Position numbers and translations under genes: made by a program. Shown here piece by piece: positions 4,993 through 41,267 of a stretch of DNA of 64,000 nt; position 1 is the stretch's first letter; each line of letters starts with the position of its first letter. Below the pieces are notes generated by a model. The model was not told where the DNA came from and searched no databases. It was given only the letters and a program-made list of their open reading frames with translations. This stretch comes from an uncultured Clostridia bacterium (lineage in GTDB: Bacteria; Bacillota; Clostridia; Christensenellales; UBA1242): the NCBI GenBank assembly GCA_947591785.1, contig CANQDK010000004.1, positions 12,137 to 76,136 of the forward strand, written 5' to 3'.

Positions 4993-5115
4993 TGTTTCAA
5001 AAAATATCTCTAATGTTTTTGCTGGCGAGGAAGCAGGAAGCAAACTTCAAAAAGTGAAAAAAACTTGGCATCAAAATCATTGACGAAAACGAATTTATTG
5101 AAAATGTTAAAATGA
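4966..5115 (+). pseudogene. Decayed duplicate of the ligA 3' end (BRCT tail)
   Basis: Aligns colinearly with 2690-2836. It has two single-A insertions (A6 at 4977-4982 versus A5; A7 at 5057-5063 versus AAAGAA) and many nonsynonymous changes. Confidence 0.85.
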
Positions 5116-5188
5116 TTTTTATGGTTGTTTGTAATGTTATAACCAATAAAAAATTTTTATTTTCTGTCCATAAATTTGAAATTTGATA

Positions 5189-5217
5189 TTGACAAATCCA
5201 ATTATGGTTGTTAGAAT
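5189..5217 (+). promoter_or_regulatory. Sigma-A-type promoter for sigma-like ORF B
   Basis: TTGACA at 5189-5194, a 17-nt spacer, TAGAAT at 5212-5217. A 10-bp inverted repeat (5193-5202 / 5222-5231) brackets it. Confidence 0.6.
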
Positions 5218-5240
5218 AAGGATTGGATTTGTGAGGTATT

Positions 5241-7508
5241 ATGGAAAATTCTGACGAAAAAGTTGGGCTTGATCTTATTTATTGGAATAAGAATTGTAAT
5301 ACAATTCATCTTAATAAAGAAGAAAGATTGGCTCTTTTAAGAGAATACAGAAAGTATGGTGAACCAGCAGTGCGTGAAAAATTGATATACGGTTCTATTG
5401 GGCTTGTTCTTGCTTTTGTTTCACACAATTATGAAGAATTTGGTAGAAAACTAGACAGAATCAATCCAGATTTTGAGGATATTTTTCAAACGGGTTTGGA
5501 AGTTTTATGTGGTGCCGTTGATAGTTTTGATCCTGATGCTTATAATTTTGAATTTTCAACTTATCTTTATCACAGAATTGATTGGAAACTTCGCAGAGAT
5601 GTTTTTCATCATAAAAGCATAATTCCTTTTGTTTCTACTGATGATAAAATAGACGATGATGGGAGATTTTTAGGAGAAATTTTACCAGATTCTAATTTTG
5701 ATATTGAACAATTAATTCAATCTATGGATATGAGTTATCTTAAAGAGAAAGTCATTCCTTTTCTCTCTTCGCAAGAAAAACGCATATTTGAATATTATTT
5801 CTTTGATGAACTTCCATATTCTGAAATTGGGAAAATTTTTGGATTTTCACAAGAAAGAGTTCGTCAACAACTTGACAGTGCAATAAAAAAAGTTACAAAA
5901 ATTTTTCAAGAAGGGCCAACTGAAATAGATAAAATAACTAGGGGCGTTCAGTTAAGGAAATCTGCCATTGAAAGAATTGAAAAAAATCAAAAGCTTTTTG
6001 AAAAATATGGGAGAGCTTTCCTTAAACAACATTTTAGGCCTCTTTTGACTCCAACACAAAAAGATGTTTTTGATAGTTTCTTTTTAAATTATCGTGGGCA
6101 AGAAGTTGCTAGGATGCTTTCCACAGTAAAAGATATTGAGAAAAAACTTGATAAGAAAGGCCCAGAACTTTTAAAGAAAAAAGAAAATGGCGAATTAGCC
6201 GTGAAGAAACCAACTCTAAGGCAACAACAATGTAAAAACAGGATAGAACGCTTGTTGAACCAGTATGGTGGGAGATTGTTCCTGCAAAAGTATTTTGTTC
6301 CTACTCTTGAACCAACCACAAAAAAAGTCTTTGAAAAAGGACTTTTAGAATACGATTTTGATTCTCTTAAGGAAATGGCGAAGCAAACGGGATTGTCACC
6401 AACAAAGTTTAAAGATATTTTGATGGAAAGTGTTGAGCAACTTAAAAATACTGATTTTGAAACTATAGTGAGAGTTGTTGATTTTAAAAATAGTTTTTGG
6501 GGAACAAGAAATATTGATGAAAAGATTGATACTGAACTTATAAGACAAAAATTTGAACTTGTGAAAAAATTTGGTGGAGAAATTGTCCTAAGAAAATATT
6601 TCTGTCCTATGCTCTCAGAAGATGAAAAGAAGGTTTTTGATTGTTTATATTTAAGACAAAATTTCACTTCTTACGAAAATGCTTCAAAAATTCTTGGTAA
6701 AACTGTTGGAGAAATTATTAGCACAGAAAAAGTGGTTTTAAGCAAACTTGAAAACACCAATTTGGAAGAACTTAAAGAAATTGAGAAAAAAGCCAATTTG
6801 TATATTAGTAAAGCATTTTCAACAAGCACTTCGCATGACAAAAATAAAATGAGAAGAAAAATTATATGCAATTATGGTGGAATCCAATTTTTGAGAGAGA
6901 GGTTTATTCCAACAATCTATGCAAAAATTGATAAAGAAATTTTTGAAAAATACATACTTCATGGAGTTCTATCAGATGAATTGAAACATCTTTTCAACAA
7001 TGGATTTGCAAAAAGAACTAATAAAGATGGATATGTTAAAGAGATAAGTGTTTCAGGAAAGATTGGATTCAGAATTAAAAATTATATATTGCCACAACTT
7101 GAAAAGTTTAAAGCCAGTTTTGAAAATTTCGAGCAAACTGTGAAAGAATTCTATATGAAAAAAGGGTTTGAAACAGTTCACTCGGAAGATTTTGAAAAAT
7201 TGACATTTGATGAAATTGCTGAAAAGACTGATGAGAAAAACAAAAAACAGTTTGAAATATTCTCTCCAGAACTTATCCAAAGAGCAGGCGGGGAGAAAGA
7301 AGTGCTTAGAAACTTCAGGCCAACATTGAATTCTGTCACGAAGCAGTTGATTTTATTTAAATCCCTTACAGAAAAAATTAGCGACATTCAAATTGCAAAG
7401 GAACTTGGGCTTACTTCTGATGAATTTAATGAATCAAAGGAAGAAATTGCAGATAAACTTCAAAATTATGTAGAGAAAAAAGAAAAGAAAGAAGGAAAAA
7501 GCAAATAA
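5241..7508 (+). CDS. Sigma-70-like protein with five C-terminal region-4-like repeat modules
   Basis: Region 2-like FEDIFQTGLEVLCGAVDSFDP..FEFSTYLYHRI and region 4-like LSSQEKRIFEYYFFDELPYSEIGKIFGFSQERVRQQL. Five modules follow with the motif (Y/F/A)GG-x3-(F/V)L-x-(K/E/N)-x-F-x-P-x-L-x4-K-x-(V/I)F. Confidence 0.8.
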   Translation: MENSDEKVGLDLIYWNKNCNTIHLNKEERLALLREYRKYGEPAVREKLIYGSIGLVLAFVSHNYEEFGRKLDRINPDFEDIFQTGLEVLCGAVDSFDPDAYNFEFSTYLYHRIDWKLRRDVFHHKSIIPFVSTDDKIDDDGRFLGEILPDSNFDIEQLIQSMDMSYLKEKVIPFLSSQEKRIFEYYFFDELPYSEIGKIFGFSQERVRQQLDSAIKKVTKIFQEGPTEIDKITRGVQLRKSAIERIEKNQKLFEKYGRAFLKQHFRPLLTPTQKDVFDSFFLNYRGQEVARMLSTVKDIEKKLDKKGPELLKKKENGELAVKKPTLRQQQCKNRIERLLNQYGGRLFLQKYFVPTLEPTTKKVFEKGLLEYDFDSLKEMAKQTGLSPTKFKDILMESVEQLKNTDFETIVRVVDFKNSFWGTRNIDEKIDTELIRQKFELVKKFGGEIVLRKYFCPMLSEDEKKVFDCLYLRQNFTSYENASKILGKTVGEIISTEKVVLSKLENTNLEELKEIEKKANLYISKAFSTSTSHDKNKMRRKIICNYGGIQFLRERFIPTIYAKIDKEIFEKYILHGVLSDELKHLFNNGFAKRTNKDGYVKEISVSGKIGFRIKNYILPQLEKFKASFENFEQTVKEFYMKKGFETVHSEDFEKLTFDEIAEKTDEKNKKQFEIFSPELIQRAGGEKEVLRNFRPTLNSVTKQLILFKSLTEKISDIQIAKELGLTSDEFNESKEEIADKLQNYVEKKEKKEGKSK

Positions 7509-7586
7509 AAGTCCAAAATTAATTCAAAATTTCCAATTTAAATTGTAATTTTAAAATTTGTAAAAGTTTTAATAAAGGGACTGGTT

Positions 7587-8402
7587 ATGTCGAGAGGATC
7601 AACAAATGAAAAATATATGTACCTTATTGGAGAATTCCCAGAAGGACTGACAAATCAAGAAAATTCTGAATTGCTTGCTCAATACAAGGTGACAGGCGAC
7701 AGGAAATTGCGTGATAAAATTATCTATGGGAATTTGAGGCTTGCAATTTCTTATTCATGGCAAAAGTTTAATGGACAAATTTATTATCAATATATTAGGA
7801 AAAACGAATATGAAGATTTAATTCAAGATTTGTCGATGATAATCTTAAATGCTGTGGAAAATTTTGATGCATCAAAAAGTTTTGCATTTTCCACTTTTCT
7901 TTGCTCTTGCATTCACAATGATTTTGTAAGAAGAATTAAAAAATCTTCTTGTCTTAAAAATAGTGCAAAGGTTATTTCTTTCTCATCTGTTTTATTTAAA
8001 GATGATAAAGGAAAAGATATAACTCTTGAGCAAGTCATTAAAGATGAAAAGCACACCGAAGATAAGATTCTTGCTTCCGCAGATGTGAAAATTATAATGG
8101 GGAAAATTCTTCCTTTCTTGCCAGAAAGACAACAACTTGTTTTTAAAAAATATTTTATCGAAGGAAAAAAACAAAATGAAATTGCACAAGAAATTGGAGT
8201 TAGTCAAGAGCAAATCAGTCGTGATTTAAGAAAATCAAAAGAGATTGTTGAGTTTATTTACAATAATGGCATAAGGGCTTATGAAATTGCTCAATCGCAA
8301 CCAAAACAAAAAAATATGGAAAAAGATACACAAAAAACTGAAAAAAATAAGCATAGCACTTCAAAAAAAGAAGTCAGCAGAACAAAATGTGCAACAAAAT
8401 GA
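7587..8402 (+). CDS. Sigma-70-like protein, short paralogue of ORF A
   Basis: DLIQDLSMIILNAVENFDASKSFAFSTFLCSCIHNDF and LPERQQLVFKKYFIEGKKQNEIAQEIGVSQEQISRDL. It is colinear with the N-terminal 240 aa of ORF A and has a Lys-rich tail. Confidence 0.8.
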   Translation: MSRGSTNEKYMYLIGEFPEGLTNQENSELLAQYKVTGDRKLRDKIIYGNLRLAISYSWQKFNGQIYYQYIRKNEYEDLIQDLSMIILNAVENFDASKSFAFSTFLCSCIHNDFVRRIKKSSCLKNSAKVISFSSVLFKDDKGKDITLEQVIKDEKHTEDKILASADVKIIMGKILPFLPERQQLVFKKYFIEGKKQNEIAQEIGVSQEQISRDLRKSKEIVEFIYNNGIRAYEIAQSQPKQKNMEKDTQKTEKNKHSTSKKEVSRTKCATK

Positions 8403-27388: not shown

Positions 27389-27700
27389 TTGGTGAAAAAA
27401 GCAAGGAGAGAGCATATACATATTTTGGGTGAGAATATGTTTAATTTTCTTAATGAGCTTAAAAAGAATTTAAAAATTCCGCAAGAACTTGACTTAAATG
27501 GATTTAATATTATCAATATTGCTGGAAATTTGCTTTATGTTGAAGGACATCTTGGTTTGGTGACGCTTTCAAAAGAATTAATTTCATTTAAAGTGAAAAA
27601 AAGTGTGATTATTGTTGAGGGGAAAGATATGGTTTTAAATGAACTATCTGACAGCACTCTCAAAATTTGTGGAAAAATTAAAAAGGTGGAACAAATATGA
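27389..27700 (+). CDS. yqfC: Sporulation protein YqfC (YabP family); start uncertain (27389 / 27425 / 27437)
   Basis: Its size and its position immediately upstream of, and overlapping, yqfD support the call. YabP-like core VEGHLGLVTLSKELISFKV...IVEGKDM. Confidence 0.7.
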   Translation: MVKKARREHIHILGENMFNFLNELKKNLKIPQELDLNGFNIINIAGNLLYVEGHLGLVTLSKELISFKVKKSVIIVEGKDMVLNELSDSTLKICGKIKKVEQI

Positions 27701-28824
27701 AATTAAGAAACATAAGCAAATTTCATATTCATGGACTTAATCAAGAAAAATTGCTTAATGAAATGTGTAAAAATTTTACACTTTTTGATATTGAAAGAAT
27801 TTCTAAAAGTGACACTTTTTTTGAGTGTTCGTATTTTGATTATCGAAAGATTGAAAAATTTATCAAATCACATGGTGTTATAATTGAAAGCGTTTCTCAT
27901 GAAGGTTTTGCTCATAAACTTATGAAAATTTTTTCTTCTTATGGACTTGTTTTTGCAATTTTTATTTCTATTATACTTTATTTCTTTCAAAATCAATATG
28001 TTTTACAATATGAAGTTGTTGGTGTGGACAAACTTAGTGAAAAAGAGATTGTCGAATTTGTTAAAGATGAATTTTCTTCAAAAAAAACTGAAATTGAGAC
28101 TTCAAAAATCGAAAATGCGTTGATTAAGAAGTTTTCATGTATAAGTTTTGTTTCCTGTATAATCAAGGGGCAAACTCTTGTTTTAAATATTAAAGAAAAA
28201 TTATTGCCTAGTGAAATGTATGGAACTTTTGCACCTCTTACTGCAAATAAAAGCGGAAAAATAACAAAAATTGAACTTATTTCAGGGACTTTAAAGGTTA
28301 AGGTTGGTGATATTGTGCAAGAAGGAGATGTCCTTGTTGAACCCTTCACTTTAGATGCATCAGGAGAATTGAAAAAAGTTGAGGCACGAGCAGAAATCCT
28401 TGCAGAAGTTTATAATGAAGGTGTTTCTGAGCATTATGAAACCTTTGTTCAGGTTTCTAGAACGGGAGAAAAGCGTGTGCAGAGTGAGGTTATGCTCTTT
28501 GGATTATCCATTTACAATTTCAAACAGGAAATCCCTTTTTCATTGTTTGAGACTGAGTGTGAATATACAAATCTCTCAAAAAACCTATTTATGCCATTCA
28601 AATTAAAGAAAACAGTCTTTTATGAGCTTGTTGAAGAAACTATTGTCAGTGATTTTGAAGAAGTAAAGGACGAATTTGTTAATAAAGCAAAGATTGATGC
28701 TGAGAAAAAATGTGAAAGTCAAAATATTTTAGATGAATTTTACACTTTACGCCATATCGGGGGAGTGACTTTTGTCAATTATTGTATTGTAACAGAAGAA
28801 AAAATATGTGGTGAGAATAAATGA
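27697..28824 (+). CDS. yqfD: Sporulation protein YqfD
   Basis: ATGA overlap with yqfC, a central TM segment and YqfD-like architecture. The synteny yqfC-yqfD-ybeY-era is preserved. Confidence 0.75.
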   Translation: MKLRNISKFHIHGLNQEKLLNEMCKNFTLFDIERISKSDTFFECSYFDYRKIEKFIKSHGVIIESVSHEGFAHKLMKIFSSYGLVFAIFISIILYFFQNQYVLQYEVVGVDKLSEKEIVEFVKDEFSSKKTEIETSKIENALIKKFSCISFVSCIIKGQTLVLNIKEKLLPSEMYGTFAPLTANKSGKITKIELISGTLKVKVGDIVQEGDVLVEPFTLDASGELKKVEARAEILAEVYNEGVSEHYETFVQVSRTGEKRVQSEVMLFGLSIYNFKQEIPFSLFETECEYTNLSKNLFMPFKLKKTVFYELVEETIVSDFEEVKDEFVNKAKIDAEKKCESQNILDEFYTLRHIGGVTFVNYCIVTEEKICGENK

Positions 28825-28999
28825 TTAAAATATAATATTTTTAATCAATTTTTCTTGGTGTTAATTTTAAATAATTTTAAAATAAAGTTTAAATAATTAA
28901 AAAAAAGTTTAAAGAAAGCTTAAATGCAGGTGTAAACTTGCATTTTTTTGTATTTTATGATATTATAAATTTAAATTTTAAGAATTGGAGCTATTTTCT

Positions 29000-29461
29000 A
29001 TGATTATCGAAGGGAAGATTTCACCTTATAAGCATAAATTAACAAAACTTTTTGAGATTACAGAAGAAATTCTTGAAGAGGATTTTTCAAATGTAAATGT
29101 TTCACTTAACTTCGTTAGCGAAGATGAAATTCGAGAACTGAATAATAATTTTAGAGAAATTGATAAAGTGACTGATGTCTTGTCTTTTCCGTTTCTTGAA
29201 AAGAAAACCACTGAAAAATTAATAAATTTTTCAAAAGAAAAAGTTGATGGAATTTTGTTTTTGGGGGACATTGTTATTTGTAAAAATAAAGCTGTTTCTC
29301 AAGCAAAAGAATATGGGCACAGCTTGGAAAGAGAAATATGCTTTCTGGCATTGCATGGGCTTTTGCATCTTTTAGGATATGACCATATTGAAAAAAGTGA
29401 CGAATTAGTAATGCAAGAAAAAGCAAAACAGATTCTTGATAAATTTGGGGTTGTAAGATAA
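29000..29461 (+). CDS. ybeY: rRNA maturation endoribonuclease YbeY
   Basis: HGLLHLLGYDH zinc motif. Confidence 0.9.
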   Translation: MIIEGKISPYKHKLTKLFEITEEILEEDFSNVNVSLNFVSEDEIRELNNNFREIDKVTDVLSFPFLEKKTTEKLINFSKEKVDGILFLGDIVICKNKAVSQAKEYGHSLEREICFLALHGLLHLLGYDHIEKSDELVMQEKAKQILDKFGVVR

Positions 29462-29488
29462 AATTTAGTTTGGAAGAAAAATAAATTT

Positions 29489-30403
29489 ATGATGAAAAAA
29501 GATATAAAAAAAGAGAATTTTCATTGTGGGTATGTGGCAATTTTGGGTAGAGCAAATGCAGGAAAAAGCAGTTTGGTTAATTTTATTGTTGGTGAAGAAG
29601 TTGCAATTGTTTCTCATAGGAAGCAAACAACAAGAGAGCAAATTCTAGGCATAAAAACAGAGAAAAATTATCAAATTTTGTTTATAGATACGCCTGGTAT
29701 TCATCATAGTAAAAATATGCTCGATAAAAGAATGAATAAAAATGTTAGGAATGCTCTTGGACAAGCAGATGTTCTGGTTTATCTTTTTGATGGTGCGAAA
29801 TCTCTTGATGATGAAGAAATTCAATATTTACAAAATCTTAAAACAAAATCTGAAAATATTATAATTGTGGAAACAAAAACAGATAAAATAAATGATGCTA
29901 AAACAAAGAAAATTGAATCTGAGAATATTTTTAGACTTCAAAATGAAATTTTGAATGAGAAAATCCCTTTTGAAAAAATCTCTGTTGTTACTGGAGAAAA
30001 TATTGAAAAATTAGAAAAAAAGATTGTAAATTTTTTGCCAATAAATAAACCTATTTATGATGCTGAGCTTTACACAGATAAAAGCGTAAAATTTCTTATT
30101 GCCGAAAAAATACGTGGACTATTTTTAGAAAATTTAGATGAGGAAATTCCTCATGGTATTGCAGTTGTTATAACTTCATTTAATGAAAAAAATGATAAAG
30201 TTGAAATTGAAGCAGATATTATTTGTGAACGTGACAAACATAAGGGGATTATTATTGGAAAAAAAGGTGCAAATTTAAAAAAAATCGGTGAAAAAGCAAG
30301 ACTGTTTGCAGAAAATTTATTAGAAAAAAAATGTTTCTTGAAGTTATTTGTCAAAGTTGACGAAAATTGGCGTGAGAAAAATGTTGAAAAATATTATGAT
30401 TAA
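29489..30403 (+). CDS. era: GTPase Era
   Basis: GRANAGKSS, DTPGI, ETKTD, and a C-terminal KH domain (GIIIGKKGANLKKIG). Confidence 0.95.
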   Translation: MMKKDIKKENFHCGYVAILGRANAGKSSLVNFIVGEEVAIVSHRKQTTREQILGIKTEKNYQILFIDTPGIHHSKNMLDKRMNKNVRNALGQADVLVYLFDGAKSLDDEEIQYLQNLKTKSENIIIVETKTDKINDAKTKKIESENIFRLQNEILNEKIPFEKISVVTGENIEKLEKKIVNFLPINKPIYDAELYTDKSVKFLIAEKIRGLFLENLDEEIPHGIAVVITSFNEKNDKVEIEADIICERDKHKGIIIGKKGANLKKIGEKARLFAENLLEKKCFLKLFVKVDENWREKNVEKYYD

Positions 30404-33308: not shown

Positions 33309-33535
33309 AAAAAACCTCCAAAAGATTTTGTCTTTTAGAGGCGAATTATTTATCCGCGGTGCCACTCTAATTGGGCAAATAGCCCCACTCATTTTTTGCA
33401 TTTTTTGTTGTGCAGTTCAACCTGACTTTCGCCAGAGCCTCCAAGGTGGAAATAGTAATCGTTTCATTTGCTTTCACCAAACGCAAACTCTCTGTATCAA
33501 CTTTTACTAACAGTCTTTTCATCGGCTTTATATTA
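33309..33535 (-). promoter_or_regulatory. T-box leader of serS
   Basis: On the minus strand: AGAGAG and GGTGAAAG stem I elements, the T-box AATTAGAGTGGCACCGCGG (33354-33372) and the terminator CCTCTAAAAGA...TCTTTTGGAGG plus T6 (33309-33341). I could not assign the specifier codon with confidence; a UCC followed by A is present. Confidence 0.85.
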
Positions 33536-33618
33536 ATATGTTAACAAATAAAATCTAAGAAGTCAATATAAAATTAAGAAATAATTTTGCAAAGAAACTG
33601 TTTGTTTTCTATTGACAA

Positions 33619-33652
33619 TAAAAAATAACCTAAAATTAATTTCTTTTAGGTT
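33619..33652 (-). terminator. Rho-independent terminator ending the tRNA-Trp/phosphatase/HAD unit
   Basis: AACCTAAAA...TTTTAGGTT with a T-run on the minus strand. Confidence 0.65.
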
Positions 33653-33664
33653 ATCGTCTGTAAA

Positions 33665-33691
33665 GCACAAACAAATTAATTAGAACTCATT
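33665..33691. repeat. Direct repeat X (copy of the phosphatase gene 3' end), partner 34370-34396
   Basis: 25 of 27 nt are identical. It supplies the last 4 codons and the stop of the HAD gene, read in a different frame. Confidence 0.8.
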
Positions 33692-34329
33692 TCTTGAATT
33701 ATTTTGTCTAATTTTTCTAATGTATCATTAATGTTTGAATTGTCGAACAGAAATGTTTTTCCGCCAAGTTCTTCAAAAGGATACAAGTTTTTTATATTGT
33801 CATCAATAAAAATACTGTTTGTAGTGTTAATATTAAATTTTTCTAAAGCTTTTAAATAAAATGAAATATCTGGTTTCCTTAAACCAAAATCGCAAGAAAA
33901 TGCATCATTATCAAACAAGGACAAATCCAAAAATTTAGGCAAAATATCAACAATTTCTTTGCACATATTAGACATAATAAAAATTTTGCAACCTTTGCTT
34001 TTGATTTTTTTTATAAATTCTATTGTTTGCAAATAAACAAAATTGTTTTCTGGGTTTAATACACTATAAAAAACTTCTTTGATGACTTCATCAGGTTCTT
34101 TGCTTTTTCTTAAAATTTCACGAAAAACATCTTCTGCAAGCACAAAGCCTTTGTCCCATTCTTTAAATATTGGAAGAGAAAGATATCTTCCAACAAAATC
34201 GCATAAACCATCATTTTGATATTGTAGTTGATATTTTTTCTTTAGTTTTTCTGGCAAAATTTCCAAAATAGGAGTGTTTTTGATTCCTCTAATTACGCCA
34301 TCTAAATCAAAAATAACATTTTTTATCAT
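33676..34329 (-). CDS. HAD-superfamily hydrolase
   Basis: VIFDLDGVI (motif I), SNM, IFIDDN. GGGGAG precedes ATG 34329. Confidence 0.8.
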   Translation of the reverse strand: MIKNVIFDLDGVIRGIKNTPILEILPEKLKKKYQLQYQNDGLCDFVGRYLSLPIFKEWDKGFVLAEDVFREILRKSKEPDEVIKEVFYSVLNPENNFVYLQTIEFIKKIKSKGCKIFIMSNMCKEIVDILPKFLDLSLFDNDAFSCDFGLRKPDISFYLKALEKFNINTTNSIFIDDNIKNLYPFEELGGKTFLFDNSNINDTLEKLDKIIQEMSSN

Positions 34330-34341
34330 TTTTCTCCCCAA

Positions 34342-34376
34342 TGTTTCTATATAGGTTGTTCATGGCAGGGCACGAA
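34342..34376. repeat. Degenerate copy of the tRNA-Trp 3' end plus downstream flank, partner 34981-35015
   Basis: 26 of 35 nt match without gaps, including the exact 8-mer TGGCAGGG (the CCCTGCCA acceptor/CCA end). Confidence 0.6.
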
Positions 34377-34396
34377 CAAACTAATTAGAACTCATT
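34370..34396. repeat. Direct repeat Y (authentic phosphatase 3' end)
   Basis: See the partner at 33665-33691. Confidence 0.8.
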
Positions 34397-34966
34397 ATTA
34401 AATTTATTTTTCTTGTTAAAATCCAATATCAAAGGGCTTCCTGTTGGAATTTCAAAAGTTAGATAATTGCCATCTTTTGGCTTTCCTTTAAAATAACTCA
34501 TTAAAACACATCCAACTCCACCATGAGAGACTAATAAAATGTTATCATTAGGATTTTTCTTTAATTCATCTAACAATTCGAAAACACGTGTTTCAACATC
34601 ATTAATCGATTCTGCTTTTTCAAATTTCTGTTTTCTATTTGAATTCCAAAATCCATTAAAATCAAATTCGCTACGTGTTAAACCTTCAAACTCTCCAAAA
34701 TCTCTTTCAATCAAACGATCGTCAATCTCAACAGTTGCCGTGCCATTTGAAATTATATCACAAGTTTGTCTTGCTCTTATGAGTGGACTGCAAATTATTC
34801 TTTTAAATTTAATATTTCTAAGAAATTCTTTTGTTTTTTCAGCTTGTTTTAAGCCTGCTTCATTTAAAGGAAGATCAACTCTTCCTTGGCATTTAGGACA
34901 CTTTATTCCATCGGAATTTCTGTAATCATTCCAATCTGTAGAGCCATGTCTTACAAAATATATCAT
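34385..34966 (-). CDS. Histidine phosphatase family protein (phosphoglycerate mutase-like)
   Basis: IYFVRHGSTDWN (RHG motif) and a later SHGG. Confidence 0.85.
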   Translation of the reverse strand: MIYFVRHGSTDWNDYRNSDGIKCPKCQGRVDLPLNEAGLKQAEKTKEFLRNIKFKRIICSPLIRARQTCDIISNGTATVEIDDRLIERDFGEFEGLTRSEFDFNGFWNSNRKQKFEKAESINDVETRVFELLDELKKNPNDNILLVSHGGVGCVLMSYFKGKPKDGNYLTFEIPTGSPLILDFNKKNKFNNEF

Positions 34967-34980
34967 AATTTTCCTCTAAA

Positions 34981-35015
34981 TGATTCGATTTAGGTTTTGC
35001 TTGGCAGGGGTGGAA
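34981..35015. repeat. tRNA-Trp 3' end plus 21-nt downstream flank (partner 34342-34376)
   Basis: See the partner at 34342-34376. Confidence 0.6.
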
Positions 35016-35075
35016 GGAGTTGAACCCTCCTCTGGAGTTTTGGAGACTCTCATTCTACCGATGAACTACACCCCT
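35002..35075 (-). tRNA. trnW: tRNA-Trp (anticodon CCA), CCA end encoded
   Basis: The minus strand reads AGGGGTGTAGTTCATCGGTAGAATGAGAGTCTCCAAAACTCCAGAGGAGGGTTCAACTCCTTCCACCCCTGCCA. It folds as a cloverleaf with anticodon loop CUCCAAA and T-loop GGTTCAACTCC. Confidence 0.9.
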
Positions 35076-35233
35076 ATATTTTTTGCAATTTGATTATCAT
35101 TTTGCTATGCTATTTTACTATAATTTGCTTTTCTTGTCAAGATTTTGCTCAAGGTGTTTGAAATTTTTTTTAATTTTCAAAAAAAAGTTGTTTTTTGTAG
35201 AGAATTTTTTGTTATAATAATAGGGGGTGCGAG

Positions 35234-35878
35234 ATGACAGAAAAAATTGTGAGTGATATTATTAACAGCAATGTTTTTGTTATTGAAAAAAATTGTAACT
35301 TCATCATTATTGATGCAGGTGCAAAAGTTGATACTGTCAAACACATTATTGAAAATATTTCTAAAAAATATTCTTTGGCTGATGGAAAGGCAAATGTTTT
35401 AGGTATCTTTTTGACGCATGGGCACTATGATCATTGCTTCTTTGTGCAGGACTACGCAAACACATTTGGTTGCAAGATTTATGCCAGCAAATTTGCGAAA
35501 GAATATTTGCAAAATCCTGATTATAACTACAGCGAAGGAAAATTTAAAATTGAAGATTTTAGTGATTTTCAGTTTCTTGATGGTGATGGACAAATATGTC
35601 TTGAGGATTTTAAAATCTCTTATTATCAACTTGGAGGGCATAGCAAAAGTGATGTGTGCTTTTTGATTGATGACGAAATTTTTGTTGGCGATGTGTTGAT
35701 TGGACGTAATATGGGGAGAATAGATTTATTTGGTGGTGACAAGGCAGAAATGAAGAAAAGTTTGGAAAAACTTGTCAAAATAAATTATAATGTTATGCAT
35801 TCAGGCCACGGAGAGGACAATTCTAAAGCATCTCAAGATAAAGTTGCAAAACTTTGGATTAAATTCCTTGGTAGGTGA
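35234..35878 (+). CDS. MBL-fold metallo-hydrolase
   Basis: LTHGHYDHC motif and a later GGHS. Confidence 0.85.
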   Translation: MTEKIVSDIINSNVFVIEKNCNFIIIDAGAKVDTVKHIIENISKKYSLADGKANVLGIFLTHGHYDHCFFVQDYANTFGCKIYASKFAKEYLQNPDYNYSEGKFKIEDFSDFQFLDGDGQICLEDFKISYYQLGGHSKSDVCFLIDDEIFVGDVLIGRNMGRIDLFGGDKAEMKKSLEKLVKINYNVMHSGHGEDNSKASQDKVAKLWIKFLGR

Positions 35879-36040
35879 AAAAACTTTGGTAATAGTTTGG
35901 TTAATTTAATGATTATATACTAATTTACTATATTTAACTTTGAATTTTTATTATGAACTAATTTATTATTTTATTCAAATTCTAAGGAATTCAAACTAAA
36001 CAAAATTTTTGTTGAGTGTGTTTTGAATGGTAAATAAAAA

Positions 36041-36063
36041 ACAGGGGCAACCTGTTTTTTTTT
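36041..36063. terminator. Bidirectional rho-independent terminator between convergent genes
   Basis: ACAGG-ggcaa-CCTGT followed by T9, with an A-run upstream. Confidence 0.7.
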
Positions 36064-36163
36064 GAAAAATTTTTAAATATTTGACTCTTAAATTTTAACT
36101 TTTGAATTTTTGAATTGAAATATTTGAATCTTAAATTTATAAATCGCTGAAATCTGAAATTAA

Positions 36164-36580
36164 TTATTGAAATTTGTGAACAAGACTTCTGAAGTTGATA
36201 TATCTGATTTGAAATTCTTTTGATTTTAGCATATCTTCTTTTGTGAGATTTGATTCAAAGGTGATGTGAACAGGAGTGGTGAATTGTTCTTTCGTGAAAT
36301 CATATTCTTTTCCGTCAATTTCGTTCCAATAATGTGTTTCGCCTGTTTCTTCAACATGTCCCATACAAACTTGTCCTCCAAATCTCTCTTGAATAAGAAG
36401 TGCAATGATTTCGCTGTGTCCACAAAAAGCATTTTCGTCTGTCCAGTTTGCTTTATACTTAGGGTCACATGTGCGTCTTGAACAAAACTCTTTGAGTTTT
36501 GCTGAATATTCTTTTGCTTCTTCAATTGTTTCAAGTTTTTTTAATTCTTTTTTGCCGAGTTTTTTATTTTCTCCTTTCAT
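36164..36580 (-). CDS. YunG-like family protein (function unknown)
   Basis: CGHSEIIALLIQERFGGQV...HYWNEIDGKEYDFTKEQF resembles the YunG family as I remember it. Confidence 0.55.
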   Translation of the reverse strand: MKGENKKLGKKELKKLETIEEAKEYSAKLKEFCSRRTCDPKYKANWTDENAFCGHSEIIALLIQERFGGQVCMGHVEETGETHYWNEIDGKEYDFTKEQFTTPVHITFESNLTKEDMLKSKEFQIRYINFRSLVHKFQ

Positions 36581-36735
36581 TTTTAAAATCCCCCAAAAAT
36601 TTATCTTTCACAATTTTTTTACACTTTTTCTTTAATTTTGTCAAATATTTTGGCAAAAAAATGCTAAAAATGTGCAATTTTTTGATTTTTTTATAAAATT
36701 TTAAGTTTTTTTGCAAAGAAAAAATTATATAAAAA

Positions 36736-37623
36736 TCAATTTTTAATTCTTCGGTCTTTTCCGTTGAGTAATAAAGTTATTGAATTTTCGCGGTCGGCTA
36801 TTCGTGAAAAAATTCGTTCGTCATATCGCTCTTGAATATCTGCTAAATCCAAATTTGTTGTTATAATTGTTGGAAGTTTTCTCATTCTTCGCTCATTGAG
36901 AATCAAATAAAAGTATTCAACTGTAACATTTTTATAAAGAGGTTCTGTTCCTAAATCATCAATAAATAAGATTTCGCAGTCAAGATATTTTTGAATTATC
37001 TCTTCATTTTGAGTTTTGGAAAATTCACGGAAATCTTGATTTGCATGAAAGGCCGTGACAATTTTGACAACTTTGGCTCGTTCAATCAAATCCTGTGCCA
37101 TACATCGTATGAGATGTGTTTTTCCAACACCTGTTGGCCCAGAAAGAAGAACTAAATCTTTTTTGAAATCGCTTGCACACCATTTTTGCATAATGTCATA
37201 ATATTTTGAAAGCTCTCCGCTTGTCTTTTTTGATTGTTCAAAACTTTCCAATTTTTCAAAACCACTTCCTGCCAGCAAGATTTTGGAAATCTCTGCTTTT
37301 AAACAAGAGCACATTTCTCCATTGATATAACCAGTGTCTTTGCATTTTGGACAGGAGTAGTTTGGTTTCAAATTTTGTAAATTGTATTCTATTTTAAGTT
37401 CTTCAAGTTCTTTTCGTAAATTTTCTTCGGTTTTGTCAAATTTTTTTAAGCCATTTGCCTCTTTTCGTGCATTTTCTATCGATATTTTTGTGTAAGCCGA
37501 ATTTATTTGTGAAAATCTTTTATCTGCATAAAGAGGGCTCATTTTTTTCTTATATTCATTTTCTGCTTGAAAGCGTCTTTCTCGCAAAACTGCAAGTGCG
37601 GAATTTATCAAATCTTGTTTCAT
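36736..37623 (-). CDS. dnaI: Helicase loader DnaI/DnaC-type ATPase
   Basis: An N-terminal CPKC...CSC zinc module, Walker A LSGPTGVGKTHL and Walker B ILFIDDLG. Confidence 0.85.
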   Translation of the reverse strand: MKQDLINSALAVLRERRFQAENEYKKKMSPLYADKRFSQINSAYTKISIENARKEANGLKKFDKTEENLRKELEELKIEYNLQNLKPNYSCPKCKDTGYINGEMCSCLKAEISKILLAGSGFEKLESFEQSKKTSGELSKYYDIMQKWCASDFKKDLVLLSGPTGVGKTHLIRCMAQDLIERAKVVKIVTAFHANQDFREFSKTQNEEIIQKYLDCEILFIDDLGTEPLYKNVTVEYFYLILNERRMRKLPTIITTNLDLADIQERYDERIFSRIADRENSITLLLNGKDRRIKN

Positions 37624-37631
37624 CTTTCACC

Positions 37632-39095
37632 TCAAATTTCGATTTCGTCAATGGATTGAAACAATGCATTCATTTCTTCACGTGTGTAGGAACGCCCAGT
37701 TGAAAAATTTGCCTTGTTTTTGGCTTTTGGCGAAACTATGTCAAAAGAGTTTTTTGCATCTTCAACTGTTTTGATTTTTTTGTCATTAAAGGAAGAAAGT
37801 ATTCCAGAAAGATATTGCATTGGCTGTTCTTTTCCAACTGAAAGGGTGCAGGCGTAGGATATGACATCGTCAGGCATTTTCCAAACTTGTGTCCAAATTT
37901 TATATTTGTCACGGTCAAACTGGTTGACATTTCTAGAAAGTCCAATACTTTCCAGAACTTCCTTTATCTTCTTATCGGTTGAAAGCACTTCGGAAATATA
38001 TTCGGAGAGTGCTTGTTCAGTTAAAATTCCAAGTTTTTGAAATTTTGTTAGAGTTTTATCCATTCCATCAAGAGTGCGAATCCCAGATTTGAAACAGAAA
38101 TTTGAAATCTGTTTTAAAAATTCATTTGAAAATCCCAAATTTATCCAAGGGAGAACATAATTGTCAACCACAGGTTCAAGGTTTTCATAGTATAAGCCAA
38201 GATTTTTGACAATACTTTGTGAAATTTCTTGCATTTTTGCACTGGTTTCTTCAAAATTTTTGATGTCTTCAATTGTCAATAAGCGACTGGCGAAATATTT
38301 GTCAAGTTTATTGTTGATTGTTTGGAAAGCATAGTCCTCGCGATATTTTTTGTTTTTCCTTACTTCTTTGGCAACATATTCAACAACTTCAAGTTCAAAT
38401 CCTTGTGAAACAATCCACTTTTTGAAAAGGTCAAATTCCTGCATGGAGAGAGGGCGTTTTATAGAAAGAATCTTTAAAAGTTGGTCGATTCCAATTTTCA
38501 TACTATCCATCTCTATAATTTTTTCTTTGACAGCATCAACAGTTGTGATTCCTTGATTTGCCCATTCTTTTGCAACTGCAGTGATGTATGCATAGCCTAT
38601 TTTATCACTATTTTTATATTTAACGCAGAAATCAATAATGCTTAAAAGTGCATTCTTCTCAATATGTAATCTTTCAATGAGGTCATAATATTCGCGATAT
38701 TCGTTTGGCGTTATCATTCTACCACGCAAGATTTCTTGTGCTTGAACATTGAAGTTTTCATATTTTTTTGCATTGTATTTTTTGTTGTTATTAATCACAT
38801 CTGTTAGTGGCAAATATCTCACTTCAAAAGGAATGACATTTATTATTTGCACAAGTCCCTGTTCTTGCCAATAATTGAATGCTTTCTCAACTTCTTCAAC
38901 TGAGATATGAAGTTCGGTAGAAAACCGTTCAAGAGTGTTGTCTTGAGCATTACTGTCTTGACATTTAAAAAGGCCATATATATAAACTCTCACAGCTTGT
39001 GAATCTGCATAAGGGAGATAGTTTGTGAGAAAAATATTGTCAACTTGTGTGACGTTGTTTGCGAGATGTTCAACTGAAAATCTACAAAAAGCCAT
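37632..39095 (-). CDS. dnaB: Replication initiation/membrane attachment protein (Bacillus-type DnaB, DnaD-domain protein)
   Basis: Its size, repeated DnaD-like domains and position immediately upstream of dnaI support the call. Confidence 0.75.
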   Translation of the reverse strand: MAFCRFSVEHLANNVTQVDNIFLTNYLPYADSQAVRVYIYGLFKCQDSNAQDNTLERFSTELHISVEEVEKAFNYWQEQGLVQIINVIPFEVRYLPLTDVINNNKKYNAKKYENFNVQAQEILRGRMITPNEYREYYDLIERLHIEKNALLSIIDFCVKYKNSDKIGYAYITAVAKEWANQGITTVDAVKEKIIEMDSMKIGIDQLLKILSIKRPLSMQEFDLFKKWIVSQGFELEVVEYVAKEVRKNKKYREDYAFQTINNKLDKYFASRLLTIEDIKNFEETSAKMQEISQSIVKNLGLYYENLEPVVDNYVLPWINLGFSNEFLKQISNFCFKSGIRTLDGMDKTLTKFQKLGILTEQALSEYISEVLSTDKKIKEVLESIGLSRNVNQFDRDKYKIWTQVWKMPDDVISYACTLSVGKEQPMQYLSGILSSFNDKKIKTVEDAKNSFDIVSPKAKNKANFSTGRSYTREEMNALFQSIDEIEI

Positions 39096-39235
39096 AGGTT
39101 TTCTCCTTCAAAAGTTGCGTATGATATAAAATCTACAACATTATTTATTGATAGAATTATAACACAAAATAAGAAAGAATAAAAATAATTTTTACAAATA
39201 AAAAAACTTGCCTAACAGTGGCAAGTTTAAAAATT

Positions 39236-39667
39236 TTATTTGTTTCTAAGCACGCGGTCAATCTTTTTGTTAAACTCATGTTCGACATTTTGTTTTTCTT
39301 TGTCGCAGTTTGCCTGAAGTTCGTTTTTCTTTTGTCTTTGTTGTTCTTGTAAATAGTGAATGCAATCTTTTGTATATGTACTAAAATGTTCTTTCATGTA
39401 ATCGAATAATTTTTGCAGCTTCACTTGGTTATGGTCACGAACACCAGAAATAAACATATAATCATTTATTTCATAGAAATCAGTTCTTTCGCTATTATAA
39501 GCAGGAAAATTTTTCCACTCTACTATTGTAAGACTATTTGGAAGAAAATGACAGGTGCATTCATGATTGGAAGTTTTAACTTCGGTATTTGGCAAACCAA
39601 GTTTTCTCAAAAGTTCTGGCAATTTGTTTTGTTTTCTTAATTCTTTCAAATATTTTGTTAAATCCAT
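39236..39667 (-). CDS. Hypothetical protein
   Basis: AGGAG lies 8 nt before ATG 39667, and a terminator AAACTTGCC...GGCAAGTTT lies downstream. The longer track start at 39763 has no RBS. Confidence 0.5.
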   Translation of the reverse strand: MDLTKYLKELRKQNKLPELLRKLGLPNTEVKTSNHECTCHFLPNSLTIVEWKNFPAYNSERTDFYEINDYMFISGVRDHNQVKLQKLFDYMKEHFSTYTKDCIHYLQEQQRQKKNELQANCDKEKQNVEHEFNKKIDRVLRNK

Positions 39668-39779
39668 TTTATTCACTCCTAAATCAAATTCAATTTCATT
39701 ATAATTCAATTTTGTGAAGTTGTCAATAGGGTTTTTGAAAAAAACGCAAGATTGTTTGGACAAGCGAATATCATATTAT

Positions 39780-41267
39780 ATGAAAACAAGATTAAAGAAA
39801 ATAAATATTTTAATTATGGCTGTTTTATTGTTTGGAATTTTTTGTTTTCCAATTTTCCTTACTGGTTGTGGAAGTGAAATTGAAAAAGAAAATTTATATG
39901 AAATTTATGCAGTTTTTAATGATGAAACAAAAACACTTGCATGCTCGCAAAAAGTTGAGTATGTCAACACAAGTGACAATGCTTTGAATGAAATTTGCTT
40001 TTTTCTATATGCAAATTCTTTTAGGGAGGGGCAAAAAGTTGTCAGTGATGCTTATTTTGACAGAACTTATCCTTCAAAACAGAAAAGTTTTGGTGAGATA
40101 GAAATTTTTTCTGCAAAAATTAACGATATTTCAGCGGATTTTGAAATATGTGAAGATGGGAACATTTTGACTGTGAAACTTTCAAAAATTCTCTATCCAA
40201 ATGAGAAAGTAGAAATTTATCTTGAATATAATGTTAAACTTGCAAATATAAGACATCGGCTGGGTTATGGAAATAACACTATCAATTTTGGGAATTTCTT
40301 TCCGATTATATGTGTTTATGAAAATGGCTTTGTGAAAAATGAGTTTTCTATGTATGGAGATCCTTTTTATAGCGAAGTTTCAAATTTTGTTGTTGAAATA
40401 AATTATCCAAATAAATTTTTATTAGCTTCAAGCGGAAATATTCTTGAAACCAAGGAAGATAATGAAAATCAAGAAAGAAATATAAGCGTTTGTAGGGCGG
40501 AAAGGGTTAGAGATTTTTGTTTTGTTTTAAGTGACAGATTTGAGAAAAGAACAGAAATTGTTGATGATATTGAAGTGAATTATTATTTTTACGATGACGA
40601 ATTTTCAAACGAACATTTAAAAACGGCTGTGAAAGCAGTCCAAACTTTTGGAAATTTATTTGGAAAATATCCATATTCCCAACTTTCAGTTGTGAAGGCA
40701 GATTTTTGTTTTGGTGGAATGGAATATCCGAATTTGGTGCTTATTGCAGACGACATTTCGAAAGATGATGTGGATTATGTGATTGCACATGAAATTGCAC
40801 ATCAGTGGTGGTATGGAGTCGTTGGAAATAATCAGTTTGAAAATGCTTGGGTTGATGAGGGGTTGACAGAATTTTCAACAGCACTTTTCTTTGAAAATAA
40901 TGCGGAGTATGGAATAGAATATGAAAAAATCATGAGTGGTGCAACAGAGAATTATAAAAATTTTTTGAGAATATATAAAGAAATTTATGATGACTTTGAC
41001 GAAAGTATTGACAGAAATATAAATTCTTTCCGCACAGAACCAGAATATGTCAATCACACATATACAAAAGGAATGCTTATGTTTGACAGTTTACGAAAGA
41101 TGCTTGGTGACAGAAAATTTTTCAAAGTTTTAAAAGAGTATTATAAAGATTTTTCGTTTGAGAATTCTTCCTCTGAGAAGCTTGTGCAAAGTTTTTCTGA
41201 ACACTCTCATATAAATTTGGAAAAGTTTTTTGAAGCATGGCTTAAAGGGAAGGTTGTATTCGGTTAA
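39780..41267 (+). CDS. M1 family (gluzincin) metallopeptidase, lipoprotein
   Basis: HEIAHQWWYG-x18-E zinc motif. Signal peptide with lipobox LTGC, starting from ATG 39780. Confidence 0.9.
   Translation: MKTRLKKINILIMAVLLFGIFCFPIFLTGCGSEIEKENLYEIYAVFNDETKTLACSQKVEYVNTSDNALNEICFFLYANSFREGQKVVSDAYFDRTYPSKQKSFGEIEIFSAKINDISADFEICEDGNILTVKLSKILYPNEKVEIYLEYNVKLANIRHRLGYGNNTINFGNFFPIICVYENGFVKNEFSMYGDPFYSEVSNFVVEINYPNKFLLASSGNILETKEDNENQERNISVCRAERVRDFCFVLSDRFEKRTEIVDDIEVNYYFYDDEFSNEHLKTAVKAVQTFGNLFGKYPYSQLSVVKADFCFGGMEYPNLVLIADDISKDDVDYVIAHEIAHQWWYGVVGNNQFENAWVDEGLTEFSTALFFENNAEYGIEYEKIMSGATENYKNFLRIYKEIYDDFDESIDRNINSFRTEPEYVNHTYTKGMLMFDSLRKMLGDRKFFKVLKEYYKDFSFENSSSEKLVQSFSEHSHINLEKFFEAWLKGKVVFG

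Follow-up and report, generated by a model that had tools for sequence, protein, structure and literature searches.

Why do two genes without promoters of their own stand behind a tRNA gene, each closed by a sequence that resembles the end of that tRNA? This question is raised by a stretch of DNA from an uncultured Clostridia bacterium (assembly GCA_947591785.1, contig CANQDK010000004.1), which was analyzed over its whole length of 64 kilobases (kb) and is called the window below. On its minus strand, to which all features of the locus belong, tRNA-Trp is followed by a gene for a member of the histidine phosphatase superfamily (PHOS) and then by a gene for a HAD-like hydrolase (HAD). We consider it probable that this is a small array of promoterless one-gene cassettes, which have been exchanged laterally and were inserted site-specifically at the 3' end of tRNA-Trp. 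An earlier interpretation, made from the letters alone (the sequence-only reading), had proposed a serial accretion of minimal cassettes. This proposal is supported by significant repeats, by polymorphism among relatives and by a lateral signal at synonymous sites; its mechanism is inferred.

In the proposed array, each cassette would comprise one open reading frame (ORF), a short leader that includes its ribosome-binding site, and a 3' element of about 26 nucleotides (nt). Each cassette would be followed by copies of the terminal CCCTGC(CA) of the tRNA and of the tRNA 3' flank.

The tRNA-Trp locus

In the direction of transcription, the features of the locus are as follows (aa, amino acids).

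35112..35140, minus strand: sigma-70-type promoter TTGACA-17-TAAAAT, matching at 11/12 hexamer positions and preceding tRNA-Trp
35002..35075, minus strand: tRNA-Trp (anticodon CCA, encoded CCA end), 55.9 bits
35009..35002, minus strand: the repeated "core" CCCTGCCA, which is the final 8 nt of tRNA-Trp
34967..35001, minus strand: tRNA 3' flank and phosphatase 5' leader, AGCAAAACCTAAATCGAATCATTTAGAGGAAAATT
34385..34966, minus strand: PHOS, cassette 1, histidine-phosphatase-superfamily protein (His_Phos_1), 193 aa (PF00300, E=6e-43)
34371..34396, minus strand: cassette-end element, copy 1, AATGAGTTCTAATTAGTTTGTTCGTG, containing the PHOS stop codon
34330..34370, minus strand: internal copy of the tRNA end, CCCTGCCA (34370..34363), with flank and the HAD ribosome-binding site
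33676..34329, minus strand: HAD, cassette 2, HAD-like hydrolase, 217 aa from the ATG at 34329 (PF00702, PF13419)
33666..33691, minus strand: cassette-end element, copy 2, AATGAGTTCTAATTAATTTGTTTGTG, encoding the end of HAD (final codons and stop) in a different frame
33618..33665, minus strand: decayed third core CTTTACAG and copy of the tRNA flank (..ATAACCTAAAAGAAAT..)
33655..33618, minus strand: terminator, an AT-rich 12-bp hairpin (33655..33624) with a U-run

The order tRNA-Trp (35075..35002), PHOS (34966..34385), HAD (34329..33676) is the one that the sequence-only reading had given, and the terminator that it placed at the end of the unit is indeed found there. PHOS starts 35 nt past tRNA-Trp and HAD lies 55 nt beyond PHOS; these two spacers hold a ribosome-binding site only. 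Both genes are promoterless. A promoter scan lists no minus-strand site in either spacer, and the tRNA promoter is the strongest site on this strand between itself and the terminator, as well as the sole strong one. One weaker promoter-like site (9/12) is located inside the HAD coding region, and other weaker minus-strand sites are located in the leader of serS. No terminator-like site was found ahead of the hairpin at 33655..33618. This hairpin itself is not listed by a simple terminator scan, probably because its stem has fewer than the three G-C pairs that the scan demands. Because the spacers have no promoter-like site, PHOS and HAD should depend on read-through from the tRNA promoter, which would yield one tRNA-mRNA transcript ending at the final terminator.

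A composite junction closes each unit

The segment 34376..34342 matches the tRNA end with its flank (35015..34981) at 26 of 35 positions without gaps, including CCCTGCCA, as already seen in the sequence-only reading. The repeat extends to 41 nt, from CCCTGCCA through the ribosome-binding site, with a score of 21. The shuffling check that had been recommended for it was run, and the repeat is significant. None of 2000 dinucleotide shuffles of the spacer reaches this score. In a search of the full 1.5 kb behind the tRNA, none of 300 shuffles does. With real sequences from upstream of 46 window genes as the reference, P is 0.002. The few upstream regions that score equally are low-complexity promoter-like runs, unlike CCCTGCCA..AACCTA.

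A second repeat connects the ends of the two genes: 33691..33665 matches 34396..34370 at 25 of 27 positions, again as reported before. At up to three mismatches, this 27-mer has only two sites in the 64 kb (0 expected; P<0.001). The stop regions of PHOS and HAD score 27 against each other, the maximum for stop regions of real gene pairs being 20. Both genes terminate within the 27-mer in different frames, PHOS with NNEF* and HAD with MSSN*; this had also been recognized correctly.

The two repeats abut, with an overlap at 34370-34376, and thus represent one composite junction. It consists of the 26-nt cassette-end element, then CCCTGCCA, then a copy of the tRNA 3' flank (..AACCTAwAT.GAA..) that runs into the next ribosome-binding site. 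The sequence-only reading was right that the units are closed by repeats. It had taken each repeat for the 3' end of the preceding unit, and this part has to be corrected: the composite junction is the common end of all units. It is present in three copies, namely at the tRNA (where the tRNA body replaces the cassette-end element), between PHOS and HAD, and after HAD. The third copy matches the tRNA end and flank in register at 22 of 37 positions (P about 8e-5). Compared to the tRNA copy, the two distal junctions match at 27/37 and 22/37; compared to each other, they match at 16/37.

The cassette-end element, which is found at ORF 3' ends, is about 26 nt long and has the consensus AATGrGTTCkAATTAGTTTGTTyGTG. 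Its first 16 nt, AATGAGTTCTAATTAG (34381-34396, minus strand), provide stops in three frames (TGA, TAA and TAG). PHOS and HAD use different ones of these stops, and the three-frame property is lost in the related locus L038. The inner junction in the window reads GTTCGTG-CCCTGC-CATGAAC, which we take to have the form of a tyrosine-recombinase core site.

Similarities of this kind might arise by chance in AT-rich sequence, or the array might be an artefact of metagenome assembly. Real AT-rich leaders and trailers in the window do reach local scores of 20-21, and contigs of relatives break at the tRNA or may be chimeric there. However, the repeats score above both the shuffled and the empirical nulls, and the null pairs with high scores consist of low-complexity, promoter-like runs. 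The junction is also found again in other species. Over this region, four assemblies made independently from the same species show 100% identity, so that the array is no assembly artefact. We regard chance and artefact as effectively refuted.

One contig of the same species (L003, positions 1-353; ERZ27060145 NODE_1241) agrees with the window at 100% identity, beginning with the first base of tRNA-Trp. Upstream of the tRNA, it has an unrelated, more GC-rich sequence without a match in the window, which reads like the end of a coding region together with a terminator and a second promoter. The switch either reflects a chimera assembled at the conserved tRNA or marks a recombination at the tRNA 5' edge. 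The contigs L038 (1-63), L039 (1-92), L040, L041 and L004 start inside or just past tRNA-Trp, upstream of the first cassette. Breaks of the assembly at this position fit strain-level variation, or a sequence common to co-occurring species.

The junction between PHOS and HAD is an imperfect palindrome of roughly 58 nt, which folds stably as RNA (-17.5 kcal/mol, z=-3.1). In addition, the terminator hairpin (33655..33624) has the flank part of the third copy as its left arm, and a flank copy also forms the left arm of the terminator in L032 and L027. These features speak for another explanation, a vertically inherited tRNA-mRNA operon, in which the repeats are functional RNA elements kept by selection. 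They would act as intercistronic hairpins, or as signals for processing or partial termination that mimic the tRNA 3' end and trailer. The conservation of the tRNA-proximal flank in four species would agree with this, as would the similarity of the spacers before and after the phosphatase gene in L033. On the other hand, no Rfam family matches the junction, the equivalent junction in L027 forms no hairpin (z=+0.98), and direct reading revealed no 5' partner of the junction that would complete an acceptor-stem mimic. Selection on RNA elements is also hard to reconcile with the five gene contents at this site among relatives, and with cassette genes that are laterally related while their flanks are saturated (see below). 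Such an operon is very improbable as the sole explanation. A processing role could coexist with a cassette history, and the junction hairpin may possibly function in RNA processing or stability.

The junction motif has no match in IMG/VR or in plasmids. IMG/VR was scanned with the junction, the cassette-end element and the tRNA 3' half, and JGI metagenomes were scanned with a pattern of tRNA end and flank; neither gave a match. In phage records, only the tRNA gene alone was matched. A motif match in L019 is located inside a coding region and was dismissed as coincidental.

Gene content behind tRNA-Trp in relatives

The loci of relatives were found by anchoring on the two cassette proteins. A comparison of tRNA-Trp loci had been proposed in the sequence-only reading, and the loci are polymorphic at exactly this site instead of all sharing both genes. 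Across the window and its relatives, five gene arrangements follow tRNA-Trp (percentages are identities to the window).

Window: tRNA-Trp, PHOS, junction, HAD, junction, terminator
L038: tRNA-Trp end and flank, directly HAD (81%), AATGGTTCGAATTAGTTTGTTTGTG-CTCTTCCA, GC-rich terminator; without PHOS
L039-41: a more divergent tRNA-Trp, directly HAD (72%)
L032: tRNA-Trp, PHOS (79%), a shortened junction merged with the terminator, thymidine kinase gene; no HAD
L027-29: tRNA-Trp, orf63 (63 codons), TTAGTTTGTTCGTGCCCTGC, PHOS (78%), a decayed junction and terminator, 400 nt, HAD

The tRNA-Trp gene is 97-100% identical in L032 and L027. In four species, the block AAYCTAAATCGAA adjoins tRNA-Trp, independent of the gene that follows. 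The HAD genes of the window and L038 share 81% of their amino acids and 84% of their nucleotides.

The junction recurs behind other genes. In L027, TTAGTTTGTTCGTGCCCTGC after orf63 is identical at 20/20 positions to the window junction after PHOS. When the comparison is extended to window positions 34390..34365, from the TTCTAA of the cassette-end element into the core, 24 of 26 positions match the junction after orf63. We consider orf63 a real gene, since it has two further clusters of homologues at 83-84% identity. A common junction is found after three unrelated genes. The junctions in L032, L027 and L033 were recognized via their homology to the window junction, not independently, and an ungapped search for tRNA-end repeats downstream in these three loci is not significant alone. 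Putative relics of the tRNA end, in L085 ahead of HAD and in L027 within the 400-nt spacer, were not significant and have been rejected.

In the distant record MT835862.1 (L095), a tRNA-Trp of 96% identity is directly followed by a terminator; it provides the sole example of this plain arrangement, without a gene in between. The record is labelled "Bacteriophage sp." (unverified). Its region 356-480 contains a tRNA-Trp without encoded CCA, the terminator and a CorA-like gene (read from the ORF translation), and it is probably bacterial DNA filed as phage.

A scan of species-representative genomes was anchored on serS, the gene downstream of the array. It recovered 19 relatives with 74-94% serS identity, labelled as uncultured Clostridia, Christensenella or Onthoplasma. 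None of them has tRNA-Trp, PHOS or HAD upstream of serS; other genes are found there, which implies that synteny has been lost, and the scan recovered no empty site.

The more distant PHOS homologues belong to a ruvB-(def)-queA-tgt operon or follow tRNA-Arg at a distance of 23 nt. A HAD homologue with 55% identity has its own promoter and is located behind a phosphoglycerate mutase gene. A HAD-profile scan of JGI metagenomes yielded only homologues with at most 39% identity.

The phosphatase gene behind tRNA-Arg(TCG) has 73% identity (L033, 1497-2190). The spacer before this gene (AATTTTAAGGAGAAAG) resembles the spacer after it (AAATTTTAAAGGAAAC), and a copy of the tRNA-Arg end was not found downstream. 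L034 and L035 encode the same phosphatase protein, in one sample behind ruvCAB and in another behind small minus-strand genes, including one for ArdA. The two sequences part at a G-run that lies about 190 nt ahead of the phosphatase gene (3501), which looks like the insertion of a conjugative-element-like segment beside that gene.

The block from tRNA-Trp to the cassettes is found in opposite orientations relative to its neighbours MBL, Era and DUF378 when species are compared (window versus L027 and L038). This implies at least two inversions of the locus.

Lateral relatedness of the cassette genes

Are the cassette genes as old as the genomes that carry them? When the window is compared to L038, L032 and L027, the identity is 41-67% for flanking proteins and 78-81% for cassette proteins. 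For HAD between the window and L038, conserved residues are encoded by the same codon more often than codon usage predicts (fraction observed 0.79, expected 0.56). The same holds for PHOS between the window and L032 (observed 0.69, expected 0.51) and between the window and L027 (also observed 0.69, expected 0.51). For six flanking genes (MBL, DnaI, DnaB_2, Era, YbeY and YqfD), this fraction is at expectation. The synonymous divergence (dS, method NG86) reaches saturation in the flanks, compared to 0.5-0.8 in the cassettes. The HAD gene of L027 is not part of the junction-bounded array; compared to the HAD gene of the window, it is saturated.

Because the contrast holds at synonymous sites, slow protein evolution alone is insufficient to explain it. 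Similarity at these sites next to saturated flanks indicates that the cassette genes have been exchanged laterally and that their common ancestors are much younger than the host genomes. In L038, HAD has a GC content of 30% within a locus of 43% GC. This locus has another low-GC stretch, so that GC content is only suggestive as evidence of transfer.

Growth of the array and possible mechanisms

The window and L027 each have an array of two cassettes, and in both the junction next to the tRNA is intact, with the core preserved at 8/8 and 7/8 positions, respectively, and with a consensus cassette-end element. The distal junctions deviate mostly by C-to-T changes, a decay that fits their greater age. 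The arrangement of L038, tRNA-Trp and HAD without PHOS, is the state expected prior to PHOS insertion. From the intact proximal junctions and from L038, we infer that PHOS was inserted before a resident HAD. Incoming cassettes would insert beside the tRNA and displace older ones outward. In the window lineage, HAD would have been resident first and PHOS would have been inserted between the tRNA and HAD; in L027, orf63 would likewise have been inserted ahead of PHOS. Single genes that enter in this way would each end in TTAGTTTGTTYGTG followed by CCCTGC.

The agent is most likely a recombinase or transposase encoded elsewhere, which would act in trans on the junction, with a crossover in or beside CCCTGC. 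Three routes can be envisaged. A trans-acting recombinase may act on the junction and cross over in or beside CCCTGC. Alternatively, a transposase may act on terminal inverted repeats and leave CCCTGC(CA) as a target duplication. As the third route, RecA-dependent unequal exchange may proceed via the tRNA and the repeated junction module.

For the transposase route, the left flank was compared to the reverse complement of the cassette-end element. One register is found in 5/6 cassettes. It would define putative terminal inverted repeats (CA...TG) with a length of about 26 nt, on both sides of which the 6-8 bp direct repeat CCCTGC(CA) is located. This transposon-like interpretation is strong when judged against shuffles and weak in the window when judged against real flanks; it is kept as a tentative possibility. 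The direct repeat runs about 30 nt past CCCTGCCA, and a target duplication does not account for this extra length.

The third route can be taken further, to an explanation that needs no dedicated mobile machinery: variant tRNA-Trp operons would undergo ordinary recombination by RecA, for instance once DNA of relatives has been taken up. The conserved tRNA gene would be the anchor on one side and the repeated module of tRNA end and flank would be the anchor on the other. Stacking would result from unequal exchange between the module behind a donor gene and the module at the recipient tRNA. The 97-100% identity of tRNA-Trp between species would provide the first anchor, and core plus flank module, about 40 nt, supply homology on the second side. 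Interspecies homology begins 4 nt (L027) or about 30 nt (L032) before the tRNA 5' end, one same-species contig turns unrelated exactly at this end, and no recombinase is encoded in the window. Yet imperfect homology of 8-40 nt is short for efficient RecA exchange. Recombination of this kind leaves unexplained the origin of the first tRNA-end copy and of the 26-nt cassette-end element, and it gives no reason for a cassette-end element after three unrelated genes. Moreover, the junction shared by the window and L027 at 20/20 positions lies beside genes that are 81% identical, which suggests a constraint on the junction itself. We consider it unlikely that RecA accounts for the array as a whole. 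For the stacking step, unequal exchange between junction modules is a serious alternative; it accounts for stacking, not for the origin of the first junction. Without strong grounds, we prefer the first two routes, taken together, to the third.

Several points weigh against site-specific cassette insertion. No recombinase or transposase domain was found in Pfam scans of 42 window ORFs spread over the 64 kb; for the genes at 27697..30403 and 35234..41267, precomputed Pfam hits on the identical contig were used, and these show no such domain either. The window genes with a Pfam match are all of a housekeeping type. Since AAYCTAAATCGAA is kept beside the tRNA for every gene that comes next, the comparison does not define an exact cassette boundary or crossover point. 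The inverted-repeat relation, when compared to real gene flanks, reaches P=0.08 and 0.30 in the window, which is weak; L038 alone gives a convincing value, P=0.006. The junction hairpin of the window is lost in L027. The junction motif has no further copy in the window or in the fetched loci of relatives outside the arrays, and no empty attachment site was recovered in any close relative. The comparison covers four to five species, all of them metagenome assemblies. Finally, slow protein evolution could account for part of the identity contrast, not for the synonymous signal.

Other genes and signals in the window

Downstream of the array, serS is preceded by a T-box leader (33334-33531, minus strand). 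It scores 80.5 bits, which is below the Rfam gathering cut-off of 93, so that a default scan misses it. A terminator-like hairpin (33314-33342) follows the T-box.

Distant from the array, at 3091-8402 on the plus strand, three consecutive genes (633, 755 and 271 aa) code for proteins with sigma-70 region 2/4 domains. Of these, the 633-aa and the 755-aa protein are unusually long. Further along, the 633-aa protein has weak matches to several other helix-turn-helix families, with no separate stretch above threshold.

Comparison with known systems

Integrons, which consist of the integrase IntI, the fixed site attI and the cassette sites attC, resemble the locus in that co-oriented promoterless one-gene cassettes depend on a single upstream promoter. 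In both, the junction is imperfectly palindromic and may overlap a stop codon, and the newest cassette is, or in the array would be, nearest to the fixed site. In contrast to integrons, there is no adjacent IntI gene, the role of the fixed site falls to the 3' end of tRNA-Trp with its own promoter, and the repeat spans about 40 nt of the flank of the fixed site. The attC boxes RYYYAAC/GTTRRRY are absent from the junction on direct reading, and the palindrome is not kept in L027. To our knowledge, integrons are essentially absent from Firmicutes. Xer/dif-like sites were not seen on direct reading either.

In Escherichia coli, tyrT is followed by distal repeats, 178-bp units that each contain the last ~19 nt of tRNA-Tyr. 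This resembles the copies of a tRNA 3' end in a transcribed region behind the tRNA. The tyrT repeats are, however, tandem duplications of one unit, whereas the genes between the copies described here are unrelated.

Mobile insertion cassettes, exemplified by the qnrD mobile insertion cassette (PMC3913671), and miniature inverted-repeat transposable elements with a passenger carry a single gene without a transposase. The array, too, has possible terminal inverted repeats, and its short direct repeat could be a target duplication. The two differ in that the inverted repeats are weakly supported here, no cognate insertion sequence is known, one target is strictly reused, and the direct repeat is well over 8 bp. 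No other copies with the same ends were found in the 64-kb window, in the fetched loci outside the arrays, in IMG/VR or in plasmids.

If the cassette interpretation is correct, the locus would represent the smallest form so far of tRNA-anchored gene accretion. Single promoterless ORFs would use a tRNA promoter, stack co-oriented and cross between genomes with synonymously saturated core genes. Integron-like cassette capture would then be possible without a linked integrase, and in Firmicutes. More tentatively, one may speculate about an undescribed gene-capture platform in uncultured gut Clostridia. The tRNA-Trp 3' end would play the role of attI, the ~58-nt junction (cassette-end element, CCCTGC and flank copy) that of attC, and the tRNA promoter that of the integron promoter Pc, while an unlinked recombinase or transposase would insert and excise one-gene cassettes. 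Because metagenome contigs break or turn chimeric at tRNA-Trp, such arrays are easily missed. The defined 20-nt motif TTAGTTTGTTCGTGCCCTGC could be used to find more arrays and the enzyme.

Given the lack of an integrase or IntI, of attC boxes and of a cognate insertion sequence, and given units of one ORF, the locus is not a member of the integrons, the mobile insertion cassettes or the islands at tRNA and transfer-messenger RNA (tmRNA) genes. The latter are nonetheless similar in many respects. The sequence-only reading had pointed to tRNA 3' ends as classic integration sites. The tRNA-end repeats and the polymorphism agree with this, but they do not establish classic integration: no integrase is encoded in the 64 kb, and the units are about ten times smaller. 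They comprise 0.65-0.7 kb with one promoterless ORF, are co-oriented and depend on the tRNA promoter, whereas islands have several kb to >10 kb and integration modules. Accreted islands at tRNA or tmRNA 3' ends do include integrase-less, cis-mobilizable remnants (PMC3146451; tycheposons of Prochlorococcus, 10.1101/2020.12.28.424599; CIMEs, PMC5704250). In the tandem ssrA islands of Dehalococcoides, the 3'-end direct repeat is preceded by an element-specific motif that is unmatched in the host gene (PMC3146451). The array and the islands have in common the insertion at the 3' end of a tRNA-type gene, a 3'-end direct repeat that bounds each unit, an element-specific motif upstream of this repeat, and, as proposed for the array, newer units that displace older ones outward. 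Variable content among relatives and lower GC with a lateral signal are likewise shared. Among known kinds, tandem accretion of integrative elements at tRNA or tmRNA 3' ends is the closest.

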